The position numbers and the translations under genes are program-made. From positions 1-41,909 of IMG/VR virus record IMGVR_UViG_3300021387_000133: a DNA stretch of 41,909 nt. One strand, written 5' to 3'. Under the pieces are notes generated by a model. The model was not told the DNA's origin and did not search any database. It worked only from the letters and a program-made list of their open reading frames with translations. Below are positions 4,552 through 41,909 of this stretch, piece after piece (position 1 is the first letter of the stretch; each line of letters begins with the position of its first letter). Origin of the DNA: a virus.

Positions 4552-6681
4552 TCAGGCAGCAAGCTGTTCTTCCCACGCATTGATATTTGTCTGATAGTCT
4601 TCTGCGTTCCGTGTCGGTACATACACCAAGCGACCGCCGATATTCCGATCACGATCACCAACACCATTAAACAGATGCCAACAGAAACCGCCCGCACTAG
4701 CGCCATGACTCCAACTACCGCCCAATCGAGCAATACGGTATCCGTTCAGGTCTGCGGTCACATAGTGGTAGTCACCAACCGGCAGTGAACTGTTTCCGGT
4801 GCATTCAGATGCCATGAACAACCAATCACATTTTGTACTGTATCCGATTGCGGAAATATAGCCGTTTGCGTTGGTCACGGTGAAACCGGCAGGTTCATAG
4901 TTTCCGTTGTTCTTACTTTCTGCAAAACTGAAGTCATTGCAGATATACGGCTGACCACCTTCCATGCTGCCATTACCCCACATATTGACACCATAGACAA
5001 ATTTCCAGATGTTACCAAAGAAGTTTTCTTTGCCACGCCACCGCATAGCGGTTTTGTTCGCTGCCGTTTCTGTGTAGGTTGTGCCGTTTCTTTCATTGAT
5101 GGTGCTTTCGGCACGGCCTGTGCCGTTTCCAATGCTTGCGGTACTGCCGGTCAAGCTGCTGTTGTTTGTGGTGTTCGGACTGTCAGAAATGCCGGTGACA
5201 CCTGCACTGATAGCATCCTGAAAGTTCATAGTTCCAAGTTCAATCATCATCAGCAACTGTTCAGCAGATACCAACTTGATCAGATCACCGTGGAAACCTG
5301 AACCCCGGTTCTGTGCCATCGTTTCAACGTTCGGCCTTGTCAGTCCCTGTGTCACACCTGATGCCGGTTTCACCCCGGCAATAGAACTGAACTTGTCCTG
5401 TGCCACCGCCATGACCTGCGCATCATCCGTGATGTATGCATTTTCAGAAACATCATACAGACAACCTTCATACGCACCGGTCAGGAAATAGTCAATTTCT
5501 TCACCGTTCGCATCATAAAAGGCCGGGTGCAGTCTGAACCCGGTACGGGCTTTCTGACTGACATAATAGTTTGCTTTTCTCAGATGGTAACCAATGCCGG
5601 TGTCAATCGGATCATAGTTGACAGGTGCAACCAGATAATAGAATTTAGGCTGATACACCATGACCTGACCCATGCTGCCATCTTCAGCATAATCATTGTC
5701 ACCGTACCAAGCAACAATAGTTCCGTCATCTGCCACGTTGCACAGTCTTCTGCCCCCATACATTGTGTACTGATCAAAGTCAGCACCGGCAGTCTTTCCA
5801 ACCGCACCTGCAAGACGGGTGTATGTCTTGTTCTCATAGTCAACAGACAGACCAAGTACATCTGTTGTGATGCCAAGGTACGCTTCAATATTTGCCACGC
5901 CTGCAAGAATTTCCTGTGCATTGAAGTTTTCAGACCTCAGTTCTTCAAGGTTTGAACTTGCTGAACTGTTTTCAGCCTGCAAAGACTGATACACGGCCTG
6001 TGCAGTTCCTGTTGAAGTTTCAAGGTTTGTTTTTGCGGTGTTAGCAGTCTGAACATCCGCTGCAAGGTCTGTCCGCATCTGATCAGCGGTATCAATGACA
6101 CCCTGCAACTGTGTCTTTGTACTGTTTGCAGTTGAAACAGCACTGTCAAGATTAGACTTGGACGTTCCTGCCGTACTGACAGAATTGTCAAGCTGTGTCT
6201 TTGCCGTTCCTGCTGCCGTGATGGATGCATCAAGGTTGGTCTTTGCGGTTTCAGCATTGGTCTTTGCCGTGTTCGCTGCTGCCGTTGCCGTTTCAAGGTT
6301 ACTTTTCGCCGTGTTCGCTGTACTTGTGGCAGAAGTCAGGTTTGTACGTGCGGTGTTTGCCGTGGTTGTAGCATTTTGAAGGTTGGTTTTCGCTGTGTTG
6401 GCAGTGTTGGTTGCACTGACCAGATTTGACTTTGCCGTATTACCGGCAGATGTGGCAGCTTCAAGGTCAGACGTGACCTGTTCCGCTGCTGCAACCTTAC
6501 CGTCAAACGCTTCAACCTGATCATCAACAGCGTCTTTGGCAGCGATCACATCAGCCTTTAACTGTGCATAGCTTTCATTATCATCATTGACCTTCACCAA
6601 GGCGTTGATGATAGATGAACGGACTTCTTCACCGTACACTGCATTTGCTATCTGATCAGTATAAGGTGTGATATTAGCCAT
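4552..6681 (-). CDS. Tail fibre / receptor-binding protein, DGR target with C-terminal C-type-lectin (FGE-like) fold region
   Basis: 709 aa. The N-terminus carries 14-aa coiled-coil-like repeats. The C-terminal part contains NFFGNIWKFVYG, comparable to the GNVWEW motif of CLec/FGE folds, and the VR-encoded segment GGSWSHGASAGGFCWHLFNGVGDRDRNIGGRLVY. It sits after the baseplate/tail-tip genes. Confidence 0.88.
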   Translation of the reverse strand: MANITPYTDQIANAVYGEEVRSSIINALVKVNDDNESYAQLKADVIAAKDAVDDQVEAFDGKVAAAEQVTSDLEAATSAGNTAKSNLVSATNTANTAKTNLQNATTTANTARTNLTSATSTANTAKSNLETATAAANTAKTNAETAKTNLDASITAAGTAKTQLDNSVSTAGTSKSNLDSAVSTANSTKTQLQGVIDTADQMRTDLAADVQTANTAKTNLETSTGTAQAVYQSLQAENSSASSNLEELRSENFNAQEILAGVANIEAYLGITTDVLGLSVDYENKTYTRLAGAVGKTAGADFDQYTMYGGRRLCNVADDGTIVAWYGDNDYAEDGSMGQVMVYQPKFYYLVAPVNYDPIDTGIGYHLRKANYYVSQKARTGFRLHPAFYDANGEEIDYFLTGAYEGCLYDVSENAYITDDAQVMAVAQDKFSSIAGVKPASGVTQGLTRPNVETMAQNRGSGFHGDLIKLVSAEQLLMMIELGTMNFQDAISAGVTGISDSPNTTNNSSLTGSTASIGNGTGRAESTINERNGTTYTETAANKTAMRWRGKENFFGNIWKFVYGVNMWGNGSMEGGQPYICNDFSFAESKNNGNYEPAGFTVTNANGYISAIGYSTKCDWLFMASECTGNSSLPVGDYHYVTADLNGYRIARLGGSWSHGASAGGFCWHLFNGVGDRDRNIGGRLVYVPTRNAEDYQTNINAWEEQLAA
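4621..4741 (-). repeat. DGR variable repeat (VR) within the tail-fibre gene
   Basis: Matches the TR except for ~27 substitutions by hand count, all at TR adenines. It ends 23 codons before the fibre stop codon. Confidence 0.92.
6016..6459 (-). repeat. In-frame ~42-bp tandem repeats (14-aa units, ...TANTAKTNLxxA...) in the fibre N-terminal shaft
   Basis: About 10 successive 14-aa units are visible in the translation (aa ~75-222). Examples are ATNTANTAKTNLQN, ATTTANTARTNLTS and ATSTANTAKSNLET. Confidence 0.8.
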
Positions 6682-24697: not shown

Positions 24698-25132
24698 TCA
24701 GGTTTTGTTCAGAACGTGATGGTATTTTTTTTCAAACGCCTGCAACGCATAACCGTGTAATTCAATGACATACTGCCGGTTATAGTTCATTTCAACGGCA
24801 ATTTTTTCCCATGACATAAACTGAAGATATCTTTTGTGCAGGATCAGTCTGAACCTGCTGTCCTTCAATCCGCTGATTTGTTCGCTGACTTTCAGCTTGA
24901 AATCAATCAGTTCATCTATTTTTCGGGTGATTTCACGTTCTTTTTCATCAATTTTTGAAAACAATGTTTCAAACCGTGCTTCACCGTTTACGCTTGTCTG
25001 TACCCTGTCACCTTCAACTGAAGGACTGCCGATGCAGTACATCATTTCTGTCAACTGTGCTTTGTCAGCAAGCATATTATTGATATCAGCATCAAAGTCC
25101 TTCACCTGCTGAAGATAATCTTTTGCGGTCAA
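24698..25132 (-). CDS. Putative late-gene transcriptional regulator (DUF1492 / sigma-70 region-4-like HTH)
   Basis: 144 aa. The C-terminal segment LILHKRYLQFMSWEKIAVEMNYNRQYVIELHGYALQAF resembles a sigma region-4 HTH. It lies directly upstream of terS, as do the RinA/ArpU-type regulators. Confidence 0.6.
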   Translation of the reverse strand: MTAKDYLQQVKDFDADINNMLADKAQLTEMMYCIGSPSVEGDRVQTSVNGEARFETLFSKIDEKEREITRKIDELIDFKLKVSEQISGLKDSRFRLILHKRYLQFMSWEKIAVEMNYNRQYVIELHGYALQAFEKKYHHVLNKT

Positions 25133-25152
25133 TTCTTCACCTTCTTTCTGCC

Positions 25153-25447
25153 GGTAACACTTATACTACACTTCTGCTACACTTGAATGAACGCAAGTGT
25201 AACCGTGAAAAGCCTTATAAAATCAAGGGTTTCGGGTGACAGGTAACACTTACTACACTTAAATCATAACTCTATTTATATATTCTTTTTTATAGGGGCT
25301 TTTTTACTCTATAATCAAAATAATAAAAGAATTTGATTTTAAGTGTAGTAAGTGTTACCACCCTTCAAAAACCCAGTAAAATCAAGGGTTTCAGCGGTTA
25401 CACTTAAATCAAAATCAAGTGTTACCAAGTGTAACCATCTGTTACCT
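25153..25447. repeat. Iteron/palindrome module A: GGTWACACTT and TACTACACTT iterons around a 22-bp perfect inverted repeat with an AT-rich 74-bp centre
   Basis: The inverted repeat is 25242-25263 / 25338-25359. Iterons lie at 25153, 25164, 25195 (inverted), 25396, 25418 (inverted) and 25428 (inverted). TAAAATCAAGGGTTTC occurs at about 25218 and about 25378. Confidence 0.85.
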
Positions 25448-25457
25448 TCACCACATT

Positions 25458-25679
25458 TCAGACCCCACCGGGCGGTGTATCATCAAGTTCTACCATGATT
25501 GCACCCAAACATTCACCTGCCAGTAACAGCAGTGAAGACACAACAACACCCTTCCACGAAAACGGTACTGTTGGAATGAGCGAACACAGGAACAGAACAA
25601 TGGTCATCAGCAGAAAGTTGAACTCAAACATGAAGATCAGTACAAGGACTTTACCAAACCCACCAAGATTATTAAACAT
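25458..25679 (-). CDS. Small membrane protein
   Basis: 73 aa from the ATG at 25679 (behind GGGGGTGA), with two hydrophobic helices. Confidence 0.5.
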   Translation of the reverse strand: MFNNLGGFGKVLVLIFMFEFNFLLMTIVLFLCSLIPTVPFSWKGVVVSSLLLLAGECLGAIMVELDDTPPGGV

Positions 25680-26331
25680 CCCTGTCACCCCCGTCACCGT
25701 TCATAATGTCATCCATGTACGGCAGATCAGAAAGAACCTTCACAAAGTCATTCCATTCATCAAGTTTGTGGCCTGTGCGCTGCCTGATCATACTTGCAGC
25801 GTTTTCATAGTCCATTGTCACCGTGCGCTTCTGATTGTAGGATGACGGCAGCAACTGTATCATCTGCCACCACCATTTTTTATCTTTTGTATTCAGATAC
25901 AGTTCCCTTGCAGTGTTCAGGTCTGCAATAGTCCTATGCATAGAACTGATGAACACGGCAGCATGATCATTGTCTTCAATCAGATGTTCCATGCTGAAAT
26001 CATCATCTGTGAATTCCTTTGCTGCTATCTTGTGCATAGTAGAACAGGAATTTGCCGTTGTCCCGACCTTGTACGTGTCAAATTCCTTCCACCAATACAG
26101 CGGTGCGGTGATATCCATTGACACGAAAATCTGACGCATATACTTACGGTGTTCAGTCCCTGCCCTGAACAACTTATGCATCAACTGTTGGTCAGCGCCA
26201 CCCATGCGGAACACACCGCCTTCAAGATCAAAGATGGTATCAGCCCTGTCCCATGAATTCATAGGGTTGCGCATACCACGCATTGCATGATTGAACCCCC
26301 ACACATTTACATCATCCACACGTATCATCAT
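25672..26331 (-). CDS. ThyX-like (flavin-dependent thymidylate synthase fold) protein with a non-canonical signature motif
   Basis: 219 aa. The layout by eye resembles ThyX (EH...F.S.DITAP... then LLPSSY..R...). However, no RHR tripeptide and no SxRY element are present. Confidence 0.45.
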   Translation of the reverse strand: MMIRVDDVNVWGFNHAMRGMRNPMNSWDRADTIFDLEGGVFRMGGADQQLMHKLFRAGTEHRKYMRQIFVSMDITAPLYWWKEFDTYKVGTTANSCSTMHKIAAKEFTDDDFSMEHLIEDNDHAAVFISSMHRTIADLNTARELYLNTKDKKWWWQMIQLLPSSYNQKRTVTMDYENAASMIRQRTGHKLDEWNDFVKVLSDLPYMDDIMNGDGGDRDV

Positions 26332-27216: not shown

Positions 27217-27416
27217 TTGAACACCTTCCCTGTCTTTTTGTGCTTAAATGTTACCCGTCCAACAATTTCAAACCCTGCAAAACCGGCAATATCCCGGAAT
27301 ATGTGAATAAGTCTGTGAACAGCAGCGTCCTGTTCTGCATCTTCTTTCACCTGTGCCTGCATTCCAAAGAATGCTGTCGGGTCTGCATATCCTTCACTGT
27401 TCTTGTACCCCATCAT
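27213..27416 (-). CDS. Hypothetical protein
   Basis: 67 aa, overlapping the primase stop. Confidence 0.5.
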   Translation of the reverse strand: MMGYKNSEGYADPTAFFGMQAQVKEDAEQDAAVHRLIHIFRDIAGFAGFEIVGRVTFKHKKTGKVFK

Positions 27417-29317
27417 TCAACGTCCCTTTCAAATACCCGTTTGTTTTTACCCCCTATTTTTTTCGGTACTGACTTCAGGTGCAACCGCTTGCACAACTGC
27501 TTGCAGAACACAATCTTTCCCATAGGGTTCATGTTGTTTTCTGCACAGAACACGGTGTAAACCCGGTAAATGTCTTCTGTCGGTTCATGCAGAATGTCAT
27601 CAAGTTCATATTCATTCAGGAATGCAAGAATGGGGTTGTTTTCTTCTTCATAGCTGTCAACCTGTCCCTGAACCTTTACGGACTTGGTGAATTCATCGTT
27701 TTCAAGTATCCGTTTCAGACCTTCTATGCCCAACCTGATCAGATATTCAATACACTGTTCCTTGATCAGATCATATTTAATGAACGGCCTGTATTCCGGG
27801 TCAGGTGATCCGTCAGACAGATACTTTGAAAAACGGGCATTGAACGGTATAATTATCAACCGCCTGAGAACAGCACCGGTCTTGTCCTTCATCCTTGGAA
27901 TGTCATTTGCTGAAAACAGCAGTTTGACATACGGGTTGAATTCAAAGGGGTCTTGTCCTTTTCTTTCTGCCTTGATACGGTTGCCGGTCACAACCTTCTT
28001 GAACATTGCAACCTGATTACCCTGTAAGAAATCATCACCGATATCATCACCAATGTTTGCCAGTTTCCCGAACATCATTGAAGTGCTGAACCTGTCCCCC
28101 AATTCTTTCAGGTCAAGTGCTGAAATGTTTTCTTCTCCAAGTATGGCCTTGACCACATCAAGGAAGGTTGACTTTCCGTTTGACTTGTCCCCGGTCAGAA
28201 TGAATGCCTTGCCCAATTCATTACGCCTGTACATACAGTAACCAATGCATTCTTCAAGTAATGCCCTGATTTCTGCATCACCGCATGACAGCCGGTTCAG
28301 GGTCTTGTCACCAAGTTCATCATATGCAGAAGGGTTGTAATTCCAATCAATGCGGTTGGTCAGAACAATGTCAGGTGATGGTTCGATCAGTTCCCCGGTC
28401 ACCAAGTTCAGAACACCGTTCCTGAATGCTATGTATTTAGCGTCAGCCTGCTGAACAGGGTGTGCAATCAGTTCCATGTAATCAATCACTTCCCGTCTTG
28501 CGGTTTTCTTCAGGTTCGGAATATACCCGATCATGGTTTTTGCTATGTCTTTGTACCCCTGCCAGTAAAGGCCGTCACGGTATACGTGCAACTGACCGTT
28601 GATCTTGACCACATGACACACATTCACCATGTATGCAGCGAACTTGTCAAACAGGAAGGTGCTGCCCTTGTAGAACACCGGCTTTTGGAATGCGTCATCA
28701 CGCAAGACGGTTTCAATTTCTTCATCAGGCAGCGGTGACTTCAGGATGTATTTGTTGATGATCCTGATTGTTTCCCTGCTTTCATCCACATTGAAATCAT
28801 TGGTCTGAAGGTTCAGGATGTAGTTGAACAGTTCCTGATTTCTTCCGTCCCCTTCACCCATGTCAATGAAGTCAGGCACACGTTTCAGCGGTTGCAGCCA
28901 TTTTGGTAATTCTTGGTATTTACCACCTTCTTCAATATCCCATTCAATGAACCGTTCTTCATGGTTGTACTTCAGGACTTCATAACTGTTTTTTGTACCC
29001 ACCTTGATATCAGCTTTCAGACCAATAGCAAGTGAAACCTTGGTGTAACACTGTTTCACTGCCGTGTTCCTGAACAGGAAGTGTCTGCCCCGTGACGTTT
29101 GAATGACCCTGCAATCAAGCTGCATATCATCCACTATCTGCATCAGAATTTCAGACTGCTTCTGATCATCAATATCAATCAGTATCACGTCTTTTGCCAG
29201 TACACCGGCATATTCAGGAAGGTCTTGCACATCTTCCAAGGTCTTCAGGTCAGAACGGCCTTTGAACTTTTCTATACATTCTTTGTCTTTGGTTTCTACA
29301 TATCCCCTGTACAGCAC
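27413..29317 (-). CDS. Primase-helicase (P4-alpha / D5-family NTPase with N-terminal primase-like domain)
   Basis: 634 aa with Walker A GDKSNGKST and an N-terminal acidic LIDIDD motif. The overall architecture matches phage/plasmid primases of the P4 family. Confidence 0.8.
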   Translation of the reverse strand: MLYRGYVETKDKECIEKFKGRSDLKTLEDVQDLPEYAGVLAKDVILIDIDDQKQSEILMQIVDDMQLDCRVIQTSRGRHFLFRNTAVKQCYTKVSLAIGLKADIKVGTKNSYEVLKYNHEERFIEWDIEEGGKYQELPKWLQPLKRVPDFIDMGEGDGRNQELFNYILNLQTNDFNVDESRETIRIINKYILKSPLPDEEIETVLRDDAFQKPVFYKGSTFLFDKFAAYMVNVCHVVKINGQLHVYRDGLYWQGYKDIAKTMIGYIPNLKKTARREVIDYMELIAHPVQQADAKYIAFRNGVLNLVTGELIEPSPDIVLTNRIDWNYNPSAYDELGDKTLNRLSCGDAEIRALLEECIGYCMYRRNELGKAFILTGDKSNGKSTFLDVVKAILGEENISALDLKELGDRFSTSMMFGKLANIGDDIGDDFLQGNQVAMFKKVVTGNRIKAERKGQDPFEFNPYVKLLFSANDIPRMKDKTGAVLRRLIIIPFNARFSKYLSDGSPDPEYRPFIKYDLIKEQCIEYLIRLGIEGLKRILENDEFTKSVKVQGQVDSYEEENNPILAFLNEYELDDILHEPTEDIYRVYTVFCAENNMNPMGKIVFCKQLCKRLHLKSVPKKIGGKNKRVFERDVE

Positions 29318-36521: not shown

Positions 36522-36757
36522 GCGTTTCTTCCTCTCTTTCTCTGATTTTTGCGCTTCAGAACGTAATACATAGGTTTCTTGTTGGCTTTCAGATACACCT
36601 GAAACAGCGTTGCCCCGGTAATAAACCCGTTGGGGTTCTTTGCCTTGCGTGTGCCGTTGGAATAATCCCGGTCTTCATACGCCTGATGTTTCAGTGCTTC
36701 ACGTCTGACCTTCCTGATGAACGTCAGATCATGACAAATTTCCTTGTACTGCTTCAT
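36518..36757 (-). CDS. Hypothetical basic protein
   Basis: 79 aa with a Lys/Arg-rich C-terminus. Confidence 0.5.
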   Translation of the reverse strand: MKQYKEICHDLTFIRKVRREALKHQAYEDRDYSNGTRKAKNPNGFITGATLFQVYLKANKKPMYYVLKRKNQRKRGRNA

Positions 36758-37161
36758 ATGGTCACCCCCTCAATTTCTGCAAACCGTTTTGCATTGATCC
36801 AGTACACCCAACCTTCACCACGTCCACGGACGGCATACCCCCACGGGAAAACACCGTCTTGCAGGCCGTTTGCTATAGCTGCCCTTGACAGCCCCATCAG
36901 CTTTGAAACTTCCCTGATGGTCAACCGGGCAATCTTTCCATCCGCTGCCGGTACTGCTGCAACAGTGTCATCAGCTTTGAAATAGTCCGGTTCAAGTCCA
37001 AGTGCTTCAGCAATGTCGCGCTGCCGTTCATCTGACGGGGTGTTCTTCCCCGAACAATACTGACTGATTGCGCTTTTGCTGATCCCGGTCAGCCTGTGCA
37101 GTTGGGTTTGTGTTATGCCCGTGCTGCACAGCACATCATTCAACTTTGTCTGAAAATCCAT
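36754..37161 (-). CDS. DNA-binding protein with XRE-type HTH plus a second excisionase/MerR-like HTH
   Basis: The first HTH is TQTQLHRLTGISKSAISQYCSGKN. The second is LTIREVSKLMGLSRAAIANGLQDG. Confidence 0.7.
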   Translation of the reverse strand: MDFQTKLNDVLCSTGITQTQLHRLTGISKSAISQYCSGKNTPSDERQRDIAEALGLEPDYFKADDTVAAVPAADGKIARLTIREVSKLMGLSRAAIANGLQDGVFPWGYAVRGRGEGWVYWINAKRFAEIEGVTI

Positions 37162-37176
37162 CTGTTCATCCTTTCC

Positions 37177-37195
37177 GGTTGATTATCAATCAACC
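37177..37195. promoter_or_regulatory. Operator-like palindrome GGTTGATT-ATC-AATCAACC
   Basis: The 8-bp arms are perfect. It has the same consensus as 39183-39201 and lies in the gap between two HTH genes. Confidence 0.6.
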
Positions 37196-39160: not shown

Positions 39161-39237
39161 GTTGATTGAAATCTTTCCTTTCGGTTGATCATTGATCAAC
39201 CATGTCAAGAATATCATAGCGTTGATTGAATGTCAAC
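39161..39237. promoter_or_regulatory. Operator cluster of the lysis/lysogeny switch
   Basis: Perfect palindrome GGTTGATCA-T-TGATCAACC at 39183-39201. GTTGATTGAA occurs at 39161-39170 and 39221-39230. GTTGA-N7-TCAAC lies at 39221-39237. Confidence 0.65.
39208..39236 (-). promoter_or_regulatory. Putative early (leftward) promoter
   Basis: The minus strand reads TTGACA (39236-39231), a 17-nt spacer, then TGATATTCT (extended -10, 39213-39208). The palindromic operator lies just downstream. Confidence 0.5.
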
Positions 39238-39264
39238 TATATTTTTGAAAAAAAGCAAATCAAG

Positions 39265-39293: not shown

Positions 39294-39334
39294 GAACGTG
39301 GGGCAAACTATAATTCAAGGAAGGGGTTGAAGTG

Positions 39335-39760
39335 ATGAACAAAGATGAACTGTTGCTGATCTTGGGGCAGAACATCCAATACTATAGATTACAGCATGGA
39401 TGGTCACAGGTTGAACTTGCTAAACGGTGCGGTTGGTCTGAAGGTGCTGCTGACAGTGGCAAATCAACCATATCACGCATTGAACACGGCAGATCAGATA
39501 TTCAAGCATCGAAAATCAAGACCCTTGCAGAAGTGTTTGGAATTAGCCCCTGTGACCTTCTGCAAGTATCAGAACAGGTTCAGAATGAACTGAAAGTCTG
39601 TGAACTGTTTGAAAAATGTTATGGTGGTGAAGCGTTCAAGGCTGTTCAACAGTTCTTGAAATTAGATGATGCGGACAGAAAGACCGTCACCAGAATGATG
39701 ACCGTCATGTTGGCAGATGAAAAATATATCAACCAAGCAACAGGGTCATACGCAGGGTAA
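39335..39760 (+). CDS. CI-like repressor (XRE-family HTH)
   Basis: HTH segment WSQVELAKRCGWS...TISRIEHGRSD. It is divergent from the early operon. RBS AAGGAAGGGG. The start is ATG 39335 or GTG 39332. Confidence 0.8.
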   Translation: MNKDELLLILGQNIQYYRLQHGWSQVELAKRCGWSEGAADSGKSTISRIEHGRSDIQASKIKTLAEVFGISPCDLLQVSEQVQNELKVCELFEKCYGGEAFKAVQQFLKLDDADRKTVTRMMTVMLADEKYINQATGSYAG

Positions 39761-39802: not shown

Positions 39803-39946
39803 ATGAAGGGCTTTAGTTGGAAACGTGCACTTGGTATCACGGATGCAAAAAGGAAGGTTGCAAAAATCACCGGCATACCAACCACCAAGCAGGGCAGGAA
39901 ACAAAAAGCACAGCGCACCCTTTGGAAAATGCTTTTTGGCAAATAA
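39803..39946 (+). CDS. Small basic protein (47 aa, below ORF-track cutoff)
   Basis: Hand translation gives MKGFSWKRALGITDAKRKVAKITGIPTTKQGRKQKAQRTLWKMLFGK*. It is preceded by GAAGGTGA at good spacing and is co-oriented with the repressor and integrase genes. Confidence 0.5.
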   Translation: MKGFSWKRALGITDAKRKVAKITGIPTTKQGRKQKAQRTLWKMLFGK

Positions 39947-39947
39947 C

Positions 39948-40190
39948 TACACTTGGTAACAGGTGGTAACACTTGAATACTACACTTAAAAGTCAGTATT
40001 TATGCCGGTTACTACACTTACTACACTTAAAATCAAATTCTTTTATAAAATGGAAAATTGAAGAATTGAACCTTGAAAAATAAATATTATATAGAGAATG
40101 GTATTTTAAGTGTAGTAAGTGTTACCTGTTACGGGGAAACCGCATAAAATCAACGTTTCTGCCGGTTACACTTGGTAACAGGTGGTAACA
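39948..40190. repeat. Iteron/palindrome module B, paralogous to module A
   Basis: A 24-bp perfect direct repeat TACACTTGGTAACAGGTGGTAACA occurs at 39948-39971 and 40167-40190. A 20-bp inverted repeat (40014-40033 / 40103-40122) surrounds an AT-rich 69-bp centre. The 30 bp at 40015-40044 are the exact reverse complement of 25325-25354. Confidence 0.85.
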
Positions 40191-40342
40191 GATGACTACA
40201 CATGAAAAGACCCGGCTGTTGCAGCAACCGGGTCAAGGATGAATAACCATGATCACAGTCAAAGGATGAATGCAAAGATGGTCAGACAAATCAATTATAT
40301 CATCCTGACTGTGAATTTACAATCAGGAAGGATGGTGTTTCT

Positions 40343-41617
40343 ATGCAAGGATCAGTCAGAAAACGGGGCAATACTTGGTCATACCGGTTTGACCTTGGTG
40401 TGGTTGATGGGAAACGGCAGCAGAAGGAAAAAGGCGGTTTCAGGACAAGGAAGGATGCTGAAGCTGCACTTGCAAAGGCCATGTCAGAATATAATCAGGC
40501 CGGTCTTGTCTTTGAACCTTCAGAAGTGTCTGTTGCTGATTATCTTGACCAATGGTTTGATATGTACTGCACCAATAATCTGAAGTACAACACACAGGTT
40601 GGGTATCTCAGGATCATTGAAGGTCACCTGAAACCGGCCTTTGGTCATTACAGACTAAAGGCATTGAACCCGACCATCTTACAGCAGTATGCCTTTGACC
40701 TGAAAAACAAGGGTCTTGCAAAAAGCAGTGTTGACGGTATCCTGACCACATTTCAGGCAGCACTTGACTATGCGGTTGAACCCCTGCACTACATTTCACA
40801 GAACCCCATGCACCCGGTCAGATATCCAAAGATTGAGAAACAGCCCCGTGAACGGATCATCTTGACCTTGGACGAGTGGCAGCGGATCATTGACCGGTTC
40901 AGGGGTACACGGTATGAAATACCCCTGATGATAGGGTTCTACACCGGTATGCGGATCAGTGAAGTATTTGCTTTGACGTGGGATGATATCGACCTTGAAA
41001 AACGGCAGATCACAACGGACAAGCAGATTGTGAAAAGAAATTTTGGTGCTGATGTTCGCAGGGTGGTTGAAAAGAAGGGCAAGAAAGAACAGCGGTCATC
41101 ATGGTATTTTGAGACACCCAAAACCCCCAATTCAATCAGAACGGTGACTATTGGTGACACACTTTATCAGGCATTGAAGGAAGAACAGAAACGGCAGCGC
41201 ATCAATGAATTCAAGTATGGTGAATACTACACCGTTCATGTGCTGAAGAAAGAAAAGGATGAAAAGAACCGTGATATCTTCCGGGTTGTGCCGGTTCAGA
41301 AATGTGTTGAAAGTCAGTTGCCCCGTGTCAAGATGGTCTGCATTGCTGAAAACGGGCAGTACACTTCAACGGACAGTTTCAAGTATGCTTCAAGGGTCAT
41401 CCACCATGAAATGCAACTTGCCTTTGATTTTCATTCACTCAGACACACCCACGCCACACTGCTGATTGAAGCAGGGGCAGATGTAAAAGACGTTCAGTGC
41501 CGGTTGGGTCATTCCAACATTTCAACCACCTTGAACACGTATGTGCATGATACTGAACAGATGCAGAACAAGACTGCTGATATCTTTGAACAGATCACTT
41601 CCCGGAAAACCTCATAA
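40343..41617 (+). CDS. int: Tyrosine integrase
   Basis: 424 aa with an N-terminal arm-binding-type domain (RKRGNTWSYRF). The catalytic region reads HSLRHTHATLL...GHSNISTTLNTYVH. Confidence 0.92.
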   Translation: MQGSVRKRGNTWSYRFDLGVVDGKRQQKEKGGFRTRKDAEAALAKAMSEYNQAGLVFEPSEVSVADYLDQWFDMYCTNNLKYNTQVGYLRIIEGHLKPAFGHYRLKALNPTILQQYAFDLKNKGLAKSSVDGILTTFQAALDYAVEPLHYISQNPMHPVRYPKIEKQPRERIILTLDEWQRIIDRFRGTRYEIPLMIGFYTGMRISEVFALTWDDIDLEKRQITTDKQIVKRNFGADVRRVVEKKGKKEQRSSWYFETPKTPNSIRTVTIGDTLYQALKEEQKRQRINEFKYGEYYTVHVLKKEKDEKNRDIFRVVPVQKCVESQLPRVKMVCIAENGQYTSTDSFKYASRVIHHEMQLAFDFHSLRHTHATLLIEAGADVKDVQCRLGHSNISTTLNTYVHDTEQMQNKTADIFEQITSRKTS

Positions 41618-41628
41618 ACAAAAGAAAA

Positions 41629-41669
41629 AGGTGCTGACAGTTCAACCTGTTCAGCACCTTCTTTGTGTT
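41629..41669 (+). terminator. Terminator hairpin after int
   Basis: AGGTGCTGA / TCAGCACCT stem, extended with one bulge, followed by TCTTTGTGTT. Confidence 0.55.
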
Positions 41670-41670
41670 C

Positions 41671-41695
41671 AGGGGTGAAAATCACCCGTTTTTCA
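41671..41695 (+). terminator. Second hairpin with T-run after int
   Basis: GGGTGA-AAA-TCACCC followed by GTTTTTC. Confidence 0.5.
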
Positions 41696-41700
41696 TATTT

Positions 41701-41728
41701 TCGTGGGCAAAATGTGGGCTGTTCCCAC
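41701..41728 (+). repeat. 28-nt imperfect direct repeat, partner of 129-156 (candidate arm-type site)
   Basis: TCGTGGGCAAAATGTGGGCTGTTCCCAC. In the circular form the two copies flank the 107-bp repeat. Confidence 0.4.
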
Positions 41729-41802
41729 ATCGTGAGCAGTCCAAAACCCTGATAAATGCTTATTTTATGCGGTTCAGCAGGCACACGGTTTCTATGTGTA
41801 TA

Positions 41803-41909
41803 GTTTGTTGAAACACTTCAAAAGTTCAACCTTGACGGCTTTCCTGTGCTTCATAATGCTTTATTTTATCAGGGTTTTTTCTGCTGTTCAATAGTTCAGT
41901 TCCCACGGG
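41803..41909 (+). repeat. Right copy of the exact 107-bp terminal direct repeat
   Basis: Identical to 1-107. Confidence 0.95.

Follow-up and report, generated by a model that had tools for sequence, protein, structure and literature searches.

A non-coding gap of 325 bp (positions 25133-25457) in this viral genome is packed with short repeated words which return 14.5 kb away, and the question raised by the locus is what such a pair of repeat clusters does and which protein reads them. The window, as the whole stretch of 41,909 nucleotides under analysis is called here, repeats its bases 1-107 at 41803-41909, a terminal overlap of 107 bp which indicates a circularly assembled genome. It is the circular genome of a temperate, siphovirus-like phage from Clostridia, probably of Lachnospiraceae, and relatives of its integrase are found in genomes of Lachnospiraceae and other Clostridia. 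The minus strand carries nearly all of the genes: an early operon runs from 39124 down to 25458 and encodes an SNF2 helicase, a nuclease, Sak4, SSB, PolA and a primase-helicase, and the late block comprises the DUF1492 late regulator (24698-25132), terS, terL and the structural genes, with holin and lysin at its end. The plus strand encodes cI (39332-39760) and an integrase with an arm-binding domain (40343-41617). The gap lies between DUF1492 and the last early ORF (25458-25697, minus strand).

Megablast of the region against GenBank phages gave no match, Pfam had no match among the small ORFs that separate the primase-helicase from the gap, and Rfam found no match in the window, so the repeats are not accounted for by any described, curated RNA family. 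GC skew, whose cumulative minimum is near 39 kb, follows the direction of the genes and is of no use for placing an origin.

The repeats themselves are far from random. GGTWACACTT has 10 exact matches in the 41.9 kb of the window, where 0.2 are expected and no shuffle reached 10; seven of them fall at 25153-25436 (hereafter module A), three at 39965-40173 (module B), and none elsewhere, the word being confined to the two modules and not scattered. The word TACTACACTT is found seven times against 0.01 expected, always within the modules, and the combined occurrences of both words extend only over 25153-25446 and 39945-40193. With all variants counted (GGTWACACTT, NNCTACACTT and GGTAACAGRT), each module contains about 12 iterons in both orientations. 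An earlier reading, made from the sequence only, had described the gap as filled with GGTWACACTT in both orientations, and this description holds, as do its positions in general, the two given as 25418 and 25428 lying at 25417 and 25427. Its account of the centre of module A also stands: a perfect inverted repeat of 22 bp (25242-25263 / 25338-25359) encloses a spacer of 74 bp with a GC content of about 18-20%, compared with 45% genome-wide, and the 16-mer TAAAATCAAGGGTTTC is present twice, at 25218 and 25377. The ends of this AT-rich core are polar (TTCTTTAT... / ...AAGAATATATA) and conserved among relatives. The features of both modules, together with the proposed iteron-binding protein, are collected in Table 1.

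Table 1. Coordinates of the iteron modules and of the candidate initiator in the window
Feature	Position	Strand	Description
Module A outer iterons, late-gene side	25153-25204		GGTAACACTT 25153 (+), TACTACACTT 25164 (+), TGCTACACTT 25175 (+), GGTTACACTT 25195 (-)
Module A imperfect palindrome P1	25207-25233		GAAAAGCCTTATAAAATCAAGGGTTTC; includes the 16-mer of the earlier reading; kept in relatives with other iterons
Module A inner iteron pair	25242-25263	+	GGTAACACTT and TACTACACTT; left arm of the 22-bp inverted repeat
Module A AT-rich core	25264-25337		74 bp, about 18-20% GC; putative DNA-unwinding element
Module A inner iteron pair, reversed	25338-25359	-	right arm of the 22-bp inverted repeat
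Module A conserved palindrome P2	25369-25392		AAACCCAGTAAAATCAAGGGTTTC
Module A outer iterons, early-gene side	25396-25446		GGTTACACTT 25396 (+), GGTAACACTT 25417 (-), GGTTACACTT 25427 (-), GGTAACAGAT 25437 (-)
Primase-helicase	27413-29317	-	634 aa; Pfam D5_N, DUF5906, Pox_D5; PriRep5 homologue; proposed iteron binder
Primase-helicase C-terminal domain	27416-27697	-	residues 541-634 approximately; winged-helix-like; proposed iteron recognition
Module B outer iterons	39945-39987	+	AACTACACTT 39945, GGTAACAGGT 39955, GGTAACACTT 39965, TACTACACTT 39978
Module B inner iteron pair	40010-40028	+	TACTACACTT, two copies
Module B AT-rich core	40029-40107		79 bp, about 18-23% GC; collinear with the reverse complement of the A core
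Module B inner iterons, reversed	40108-40133	-	TACTACACTT, GGTAACACTT, CGTAACAGGT
Module B conserved palindrome	40136-40159		GAAACCGCATAAAATCAACGTTTC
Module B outer iterons	40164-40193	+	GGTTACACTT, GGTAACAGGT, GGTAACAGAT

Module B is a true paralogue of module A. In local alignment it scored 112 against the reverse complement of A and 70 against the same strand, with a maximum of 32 in 200 shuffles, which bears out the earlier claim that architecture and words recur 14.5 kb away; the better score with the reverse complement indicates that the inner units of the two modules are mutually inverted. Both cores have the same polarity relative to their downstream gene. The modules had also been said to delimit the early region exactly, and this is right as an approximation: module A fills the junction of early and late genes, and module B comes after cI and a small ORF, in the interval from the cI operon to int and just upstream of int.

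Two other sets of regulatory signals were noted in this part of the genome. Palindromic operators of the form GGTTGAT-N5-ATCAACC occupy the divergent cI/cro promoter region (39183-39201 and 39220-39238), and a further perfect copy (37177-37195) stands just upstream of a second HTH gene (36754-37161); as had been stated from the sequence, the operators at 39183 and 37177 are built of words distinct from the iterons. Between int and module B there is a conserved small antisense unit (40203-40322, minus strand), with a promoter TTGTAA-17-TATAAT carrying a TG extension (40322-40294) and an intrinsic terminator (40234-40209). Its -10 box is invariant and its hairpin is kept with compensatory changes in the relatives L204, L310, L307 and L314. 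The predicted antisense RNA, of about 80 nt, is directed against the int leader, and its transcription would stop just before module B.

About 190 related viral contigs were collected by scans that took the SNF2 helicase, primase-helicase and integrase as queries, and the module recurs in well over 100 related viral contigs, in prophages and in the cultured Paenibacillus phage Wanderer. The layout is shared: outer iterons, a palindrome, an inner pair, an AT core, the inverted inner pair and again outer iterons, with a core of 75-100 bp in the relatives and conserved polar ends. The iteron words are specific to each phage, among them CTTGAAC, GTTACGG, GTTACAG, TGTAACT, GGTAACA, CTGGTAC and AGCTACA, with ACTACAC in L280, and on sequence they may all be read as variants of one theme of about 10 bp. 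The comparison with related phages that had been proposed earlier therefore separates a constant part, formed by the architecture, the palindromes and the core ends, from words which differ by phage. None of the records examined annotates an origin.

The position of the module varies with respect to neighbouring genes. In most close relatives, module A lies 20-45 nt before DUF1492; in a group with AGTTACA iterons it lies after that gene, between DUF1492 and terS; and in L163, L174, L177 and L273/L274 it begins at or just after the stop codon of the primase-helicase. In phage Wanderer, whose primase is 47% identical, a module with GTAACAGAT iterons starts from the primase stop codon and is followed by sigma-like late regulators. 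In the window, 1,966 bp with six small ORFs separate the primase-helicase stop codon from module A, downstream of it, and module B lies about 10.6 kb upstream of the primase-helicase start. A second module is frequent in the clade (L195/L228, L199/L233, L243 with L310, L269 with L307, L248 with L322), and its position accompanies the integrase type of the window: L174 has a different integrase and no module in its int-cI region, which is covered by the contig. Single-module relatives comprise L174, the small element L274 and apparently L163 and L177, where no second module was found within 7-8 kb upstream. The polarity of module B is the same as that of A in L310 and inverted in L322 and the window, and in several relatives its iteron variants form a looser mixture than those of A, which suggests that B may be a weaker or differently used site. 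Such variability of position and orientation is what would be expected of an autonomous cis element.

Some further arrangements were met during these scans. Within a few kb, contigs of 10-13 kb (L272-L274 and L246) combine int, sometimes cI, a primase-helicase whose C-terminal domain is divergent, and a module of AGCTACA iterons. In appearance they are PICI-like satellites, related to the full phages and sharing with them the types of integrase and initiator. In unrelated viral contigs with the word CTACACTT, the cluster adjoins primase/helicase genes of several families, the tandem-word scan behind this result being mostly unspecific and its informative loci being clusters in both orientations, selected by design. 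In many relatives (L124-L191) the SNF2 gene is directly preceded by long same-strand tandem arrays of variable length, in which AACAGCGG or a variant of it is repeated up to 24 times; arrays of this type were not detected in the window.

The palindromes which flank the inner iterons are a conserved element of their own, present in the three copies of Table 1 as well as in L049, L280 and L334 (5890-5925 / 6050-6080). Between outer and inner iterons, their shared imperfect form consists of (G)AAACCCTTG, 7-10 AT-rich bases and CAAGGGTTT(C); a strict palindrome expression caught one copy in the window, and a conserved half-site with a degenerate partner is the better description. The palindrome is unchanged where the iterons differ, including in a phage whose primase-helicase is only 28% identical, and folding prediction gives small hairpins in single-stranded DNA. 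A host factor may recognise it, or else a conserved region of the initiator.

The protein most likely to read the iterons is suggested by homology. The primase-helicase matches PriRep5 of SaPI5 (PDB 7OLA/7OM0) with E=2.7e-38; the alignment covers residues 243-608 and takes in part of the C-terminal domain. A profile of this domain finds the PriRep5 C-terminal domain with E=1e-5 and then, weakly, the winged helices of RFX5 and Cdc6/Orc1. Its single-sequence AlphaFold model, of low confidence (pLDDT 54), shows only a helix-helix-beta-hairpin topology.

Covariation points to the same domain. Across 58 relatives, with iterons scored on module A and with pairs which are not phylogenetically independent, the similarity of iteron sets correlated with the identity of the C-terminal domain at a Spearman rho of 0.56, compared with 0.37-0.41 for other segments of the primase-helicase. 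Among the roughly 222-224 pairs with C-terminal domains at least 95% identical, none had different iteron sets. At the same threshold, different sets accompanied 90 of 317 pairs for DUF1492, 80 of 203 for o67, 126 of 360 for PolA and 66 of 175 for terS; DUF1492, o67 and PolA were accordingly rejected as specificity determinants. Iteron identity tracks the C-terminal domain of the primase-helicase and not DUF1492, terS, PolA or o67, which points to this domain as the iteron reader. The clearest single case is a natural swap: the primase-helicases of L235 and L253 are identical over residues 1-528 and differ by 13 substitutions within 529-625, in the part predicted to form the recognition helix and wing. 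Between the two, the iteron goes from GTTACGG to GTTACAG, and DUF1492, terS and PolA are 96-99% identical. Moreover, among the sequences displayed, the wing motif SVP(K/R)K occurs only in the window and L280, both with ACTACAC iterons. This covariation also lends support to the earlier proposal of a second DNA-binding specificity, apart from that of the cI/cro operators.

Taken together, the homology to PriRep5, an architecture identical to that of the SaPI ori and the covariation of iterons with the C-terminal domain argue that modules A and B are iteron-type replication origins of the SaPI/P4 class, a reading to which a probability of about 70% is assigned. The core of the earlier hypothesis, that of origin iterons bound by a P4/D5-type primase-helicase, is thereby well supported. 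In the mechanism envisaged, the primase-helicase would act as a self-loading SF3 helicase whose C-terminal winged helix recognises iterons of about 10 bp (GGTWACACTT, TACTACACTT and GGTAACAGRT), oppositely oriented on the two sides of an AT-rich core of 74-79 bp. Two hexamers, one per side, would assemble, melt the core and move outward, and the primase domain would prime, perhaps at the small conserved palindromes flanking the inner iterons. One initiator would serve two origins, or a primary and an auxiliary origin, rather than two halves of one; binding, melting and firing, like any division of labour between A and B, are inferred from these comparisons.

The sequence-only reading had gone further and compared the pair to ori and crr of satellite phage P4. 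Such an obligatory bipartite origin, with A and B both needed in cis, the primase-helicase looping the 14.5-kb early region and a single initiation site, would suit a genome in which the same words form two clusters and a P4/D5-type initiator is encoded; two-module genomes are frequent, as listed above, and in P4 crr lies just downstream of the alpha gene, with ori several kb away. Yet each module has a full origin anatomy, L174 and L274 have a single one and L163 and L177 show none within the 7-8 kb upstream, the mutual orientation of A and B is not the same in every relative, and the iteron mix of B is in some genomes loosely matched to that of A. The P4 analogy in this strict form is not supported by such a pattern and is judged unlikely; complete modules, single-module relatives and variable relative orientation favour two origins over an obligatory pair. 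Control of transcription, also named earlier, would make the cores promoters of the late regulator (A) and of int (B), and the repeats operators for DUF1492, another HTH protein or the primase-helicase. The location of the modules suits this, since in most close relatives 20-45 nt separate the end of A from DUF1492 downstream of it, B stands about 150 nt before int, the window cores share their polarity relative to the downstream gene, and weak hexamers are present in them (TTGATT-18-TATAAA and TTGAAC-16-TATATA). On the strand of the downstream gene, however, a promoter scan detected no consensus promoter within the core of A or of B, and its sole matches in the modules, 25355-25382 (plus) and 40132-40103 (minus), read away from that gene. 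Furthermore, the module follows DUF1492 in the AGTTACA group, directly follows the helicase gene in small elements composed of int and primase-helicase as well as in L163, L174 and L177, and differs in the polarity of B towards int between L310 on one side and L322 and the window on the other; near-identical DUF1492 proteins coexist with different iterons, and the cI/cro operators use different words. Co-regulated promoters fit these data worse than origins do and are improbable as the principal function, although the weak hexamers in the AT-rich cores make an additional transcriptional role possible.

A role in recombination or packaging, with B as attP or an array of Int arm sites, A as pac or cos, or the pair as inversion sites or cruciform insulators, is very improbable. 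It could appeal to the proximity of B to an integrase with an arm-binding domain and of A to terS, to the mutual inversion of the modules, and to the gene order of L258, which fits an inversion of the segment between them; nothing specific speaks for cruciform insulators, an alternative of the earlier reading which fits worse than origins do. Exclusion of DUF1492 and terS as iteron readers by the covariation argues against both a pure late-promoter and a pac-site reading: terS proteins 98-99% identical coexist with different iterons, on which ground a pac/cos site was rejected, and many relatives have their module far from terS or next to int only. Against attP stands the prophage L204, on a 272-kb Sporofaciens contig, where the equivalent module is intact upstream of int and host genes (a TrmA-like methyltransferase, an HD/OB protein and HtrA) directly follow int; module B is not split by integration and was rejected as attP or arm-site array. 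The int-lysin gap (41617-41909 and 1-158), where attP would be expected, contains a separate pair of direct repeats, CGTGGGCAAWAKGTGGG (41702-41718 and 130-146), and probably represents the attP with arm-type sites. In L258 (13446-15236 of contig IMGVR_UViG_3300029716_000068), and also in L330, the early genes, o67, the iteron module and int are all on the same strand; this order could stem from an inversion of the cI-plus-early segment by recombination between modules, or equally from an assembly mis-join at the repeat.

If A and B are origins, the presence of two complete, inverted copies around the cI-plus-early segment may serve more than redundancy, although this is a speculative and unlikely proposal. 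Origin B lies about 1.5 kb from attP, behind a conserved terminator; the conserved RNA antisense to the int leader is encoded next to it. B might start replication while the prophage is still integrated, or link int expression to the level of the initiator, and the entire early module of 14.5 kb might be inverted by recombination between the two copies, an order of genes seen in contig L258. In the same proposal, the palindromes beside the inner iterons would be entry hairpins for the primase.

The assignment proposed here gives a concrete candidate origin to temperate phages of gut Lachnospiraceae and related Clostridia, a large group on which there has been hardly any work, and it extends to cultured relatives such as Paenibacillus phage Wanderer. 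The swap between L235 and L253, with 13 substitutions and one iteron base, points to the winged-helix residues which read the iteron. Uses can be foreseen in the study of initiator-origin specificity and of incompatibility between co-resident phages and satellites, and in shuttle replicons for gut Firmicutes that are hard to transform, and the additional module beside int opens a question on two-origin phage genomes that is within reach of study.

Among known systems, the staphylococcal pathogenicity islands offer the closest comparison. SaPI Rep proteins are SF3 helicases that load themselves and recognise iterons through a C-terminal winged helix, with a specificity that differs between elements, and the SaPI ori contains 6-12 iterons, with at least two opposed iterons on each side of a central AT-rich region of about 80 bp (PMC9371898). 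The window resembles it in its homologous SF3 initiator, which matches PriRep5 (7OLA) including the C-terminal domain, and in modules of about 12 iterons with at least two opposed iterons per side around an AT-rich centre. It differs in being a 41.8-kb temperate phage of Clostridia and not a satellite, in iterons of about 9-10 bp as against 5-6 bp, and in the distance of about 2 kb between module A and the initiator gene, whereas the SaPI ori immediately follows rep; placement directly after the initiator gene does occur in L163, L174, L177, L273/L274 and Wanderer. The window also adds the conserved palindrome (G)AAACCCTTG...CAAGGGTTT(C) between outer and inner iterons, and a second complete module next to int, a duplication frequent in relatives. 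As entry hairpins for the primase, the palindromes would constitute a feature not described for SaPI origins.

In phage P4, the alpha protein unites primase, SF3 helicase and a C-terminal winged-helix origin binder in one polypeptide (PMC2777425). The window has, like P4, two separate iteron clusters, with the primase-helicase as their proposed common binder, and differs in that both of its modules are complete and single-module relatives exist. The primase of alpha is of DnaG type, the P4 iteron is TGTTCACC, which resembles AAGTGTTACC of the window, and crr is a pair of direct 120-bp repeats which is not known to form a complete origin and on which ori depends. In the origin oriV of plasmid RSF1010, two small palindromes, ssiA and ssiB, stand on either side of the iterons and AT-rich region and serve as primase entry sites; palindromes stand beside iterons and an AT-rich region in both cases, and by analogy those of the window may have the same role, although the RSF1010 proteins (RepC, RepA and RepB') are unrelated to those of the window. 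A precedent for two origins is found in Bacillus phage SPP1, whose oriL and oriR are far apart, each with initiator-binding repeats beside an AT-rich segment, and are both bound by G38P. Like the window, SPP1 is a Firmicute siphovirus with two distant origin-like regions and one phage initiator; G38P, however, is a replisome organiser which recruits the DnaB-type helicase G40P via a loader, and has no known homology to the SF3 primase-helicase. The class proposed for modules A and B, a SaPI/P4-type origin with an SF3 initiator, is known in kind and is placed here in full-size temperate phages of gut Clostridia.
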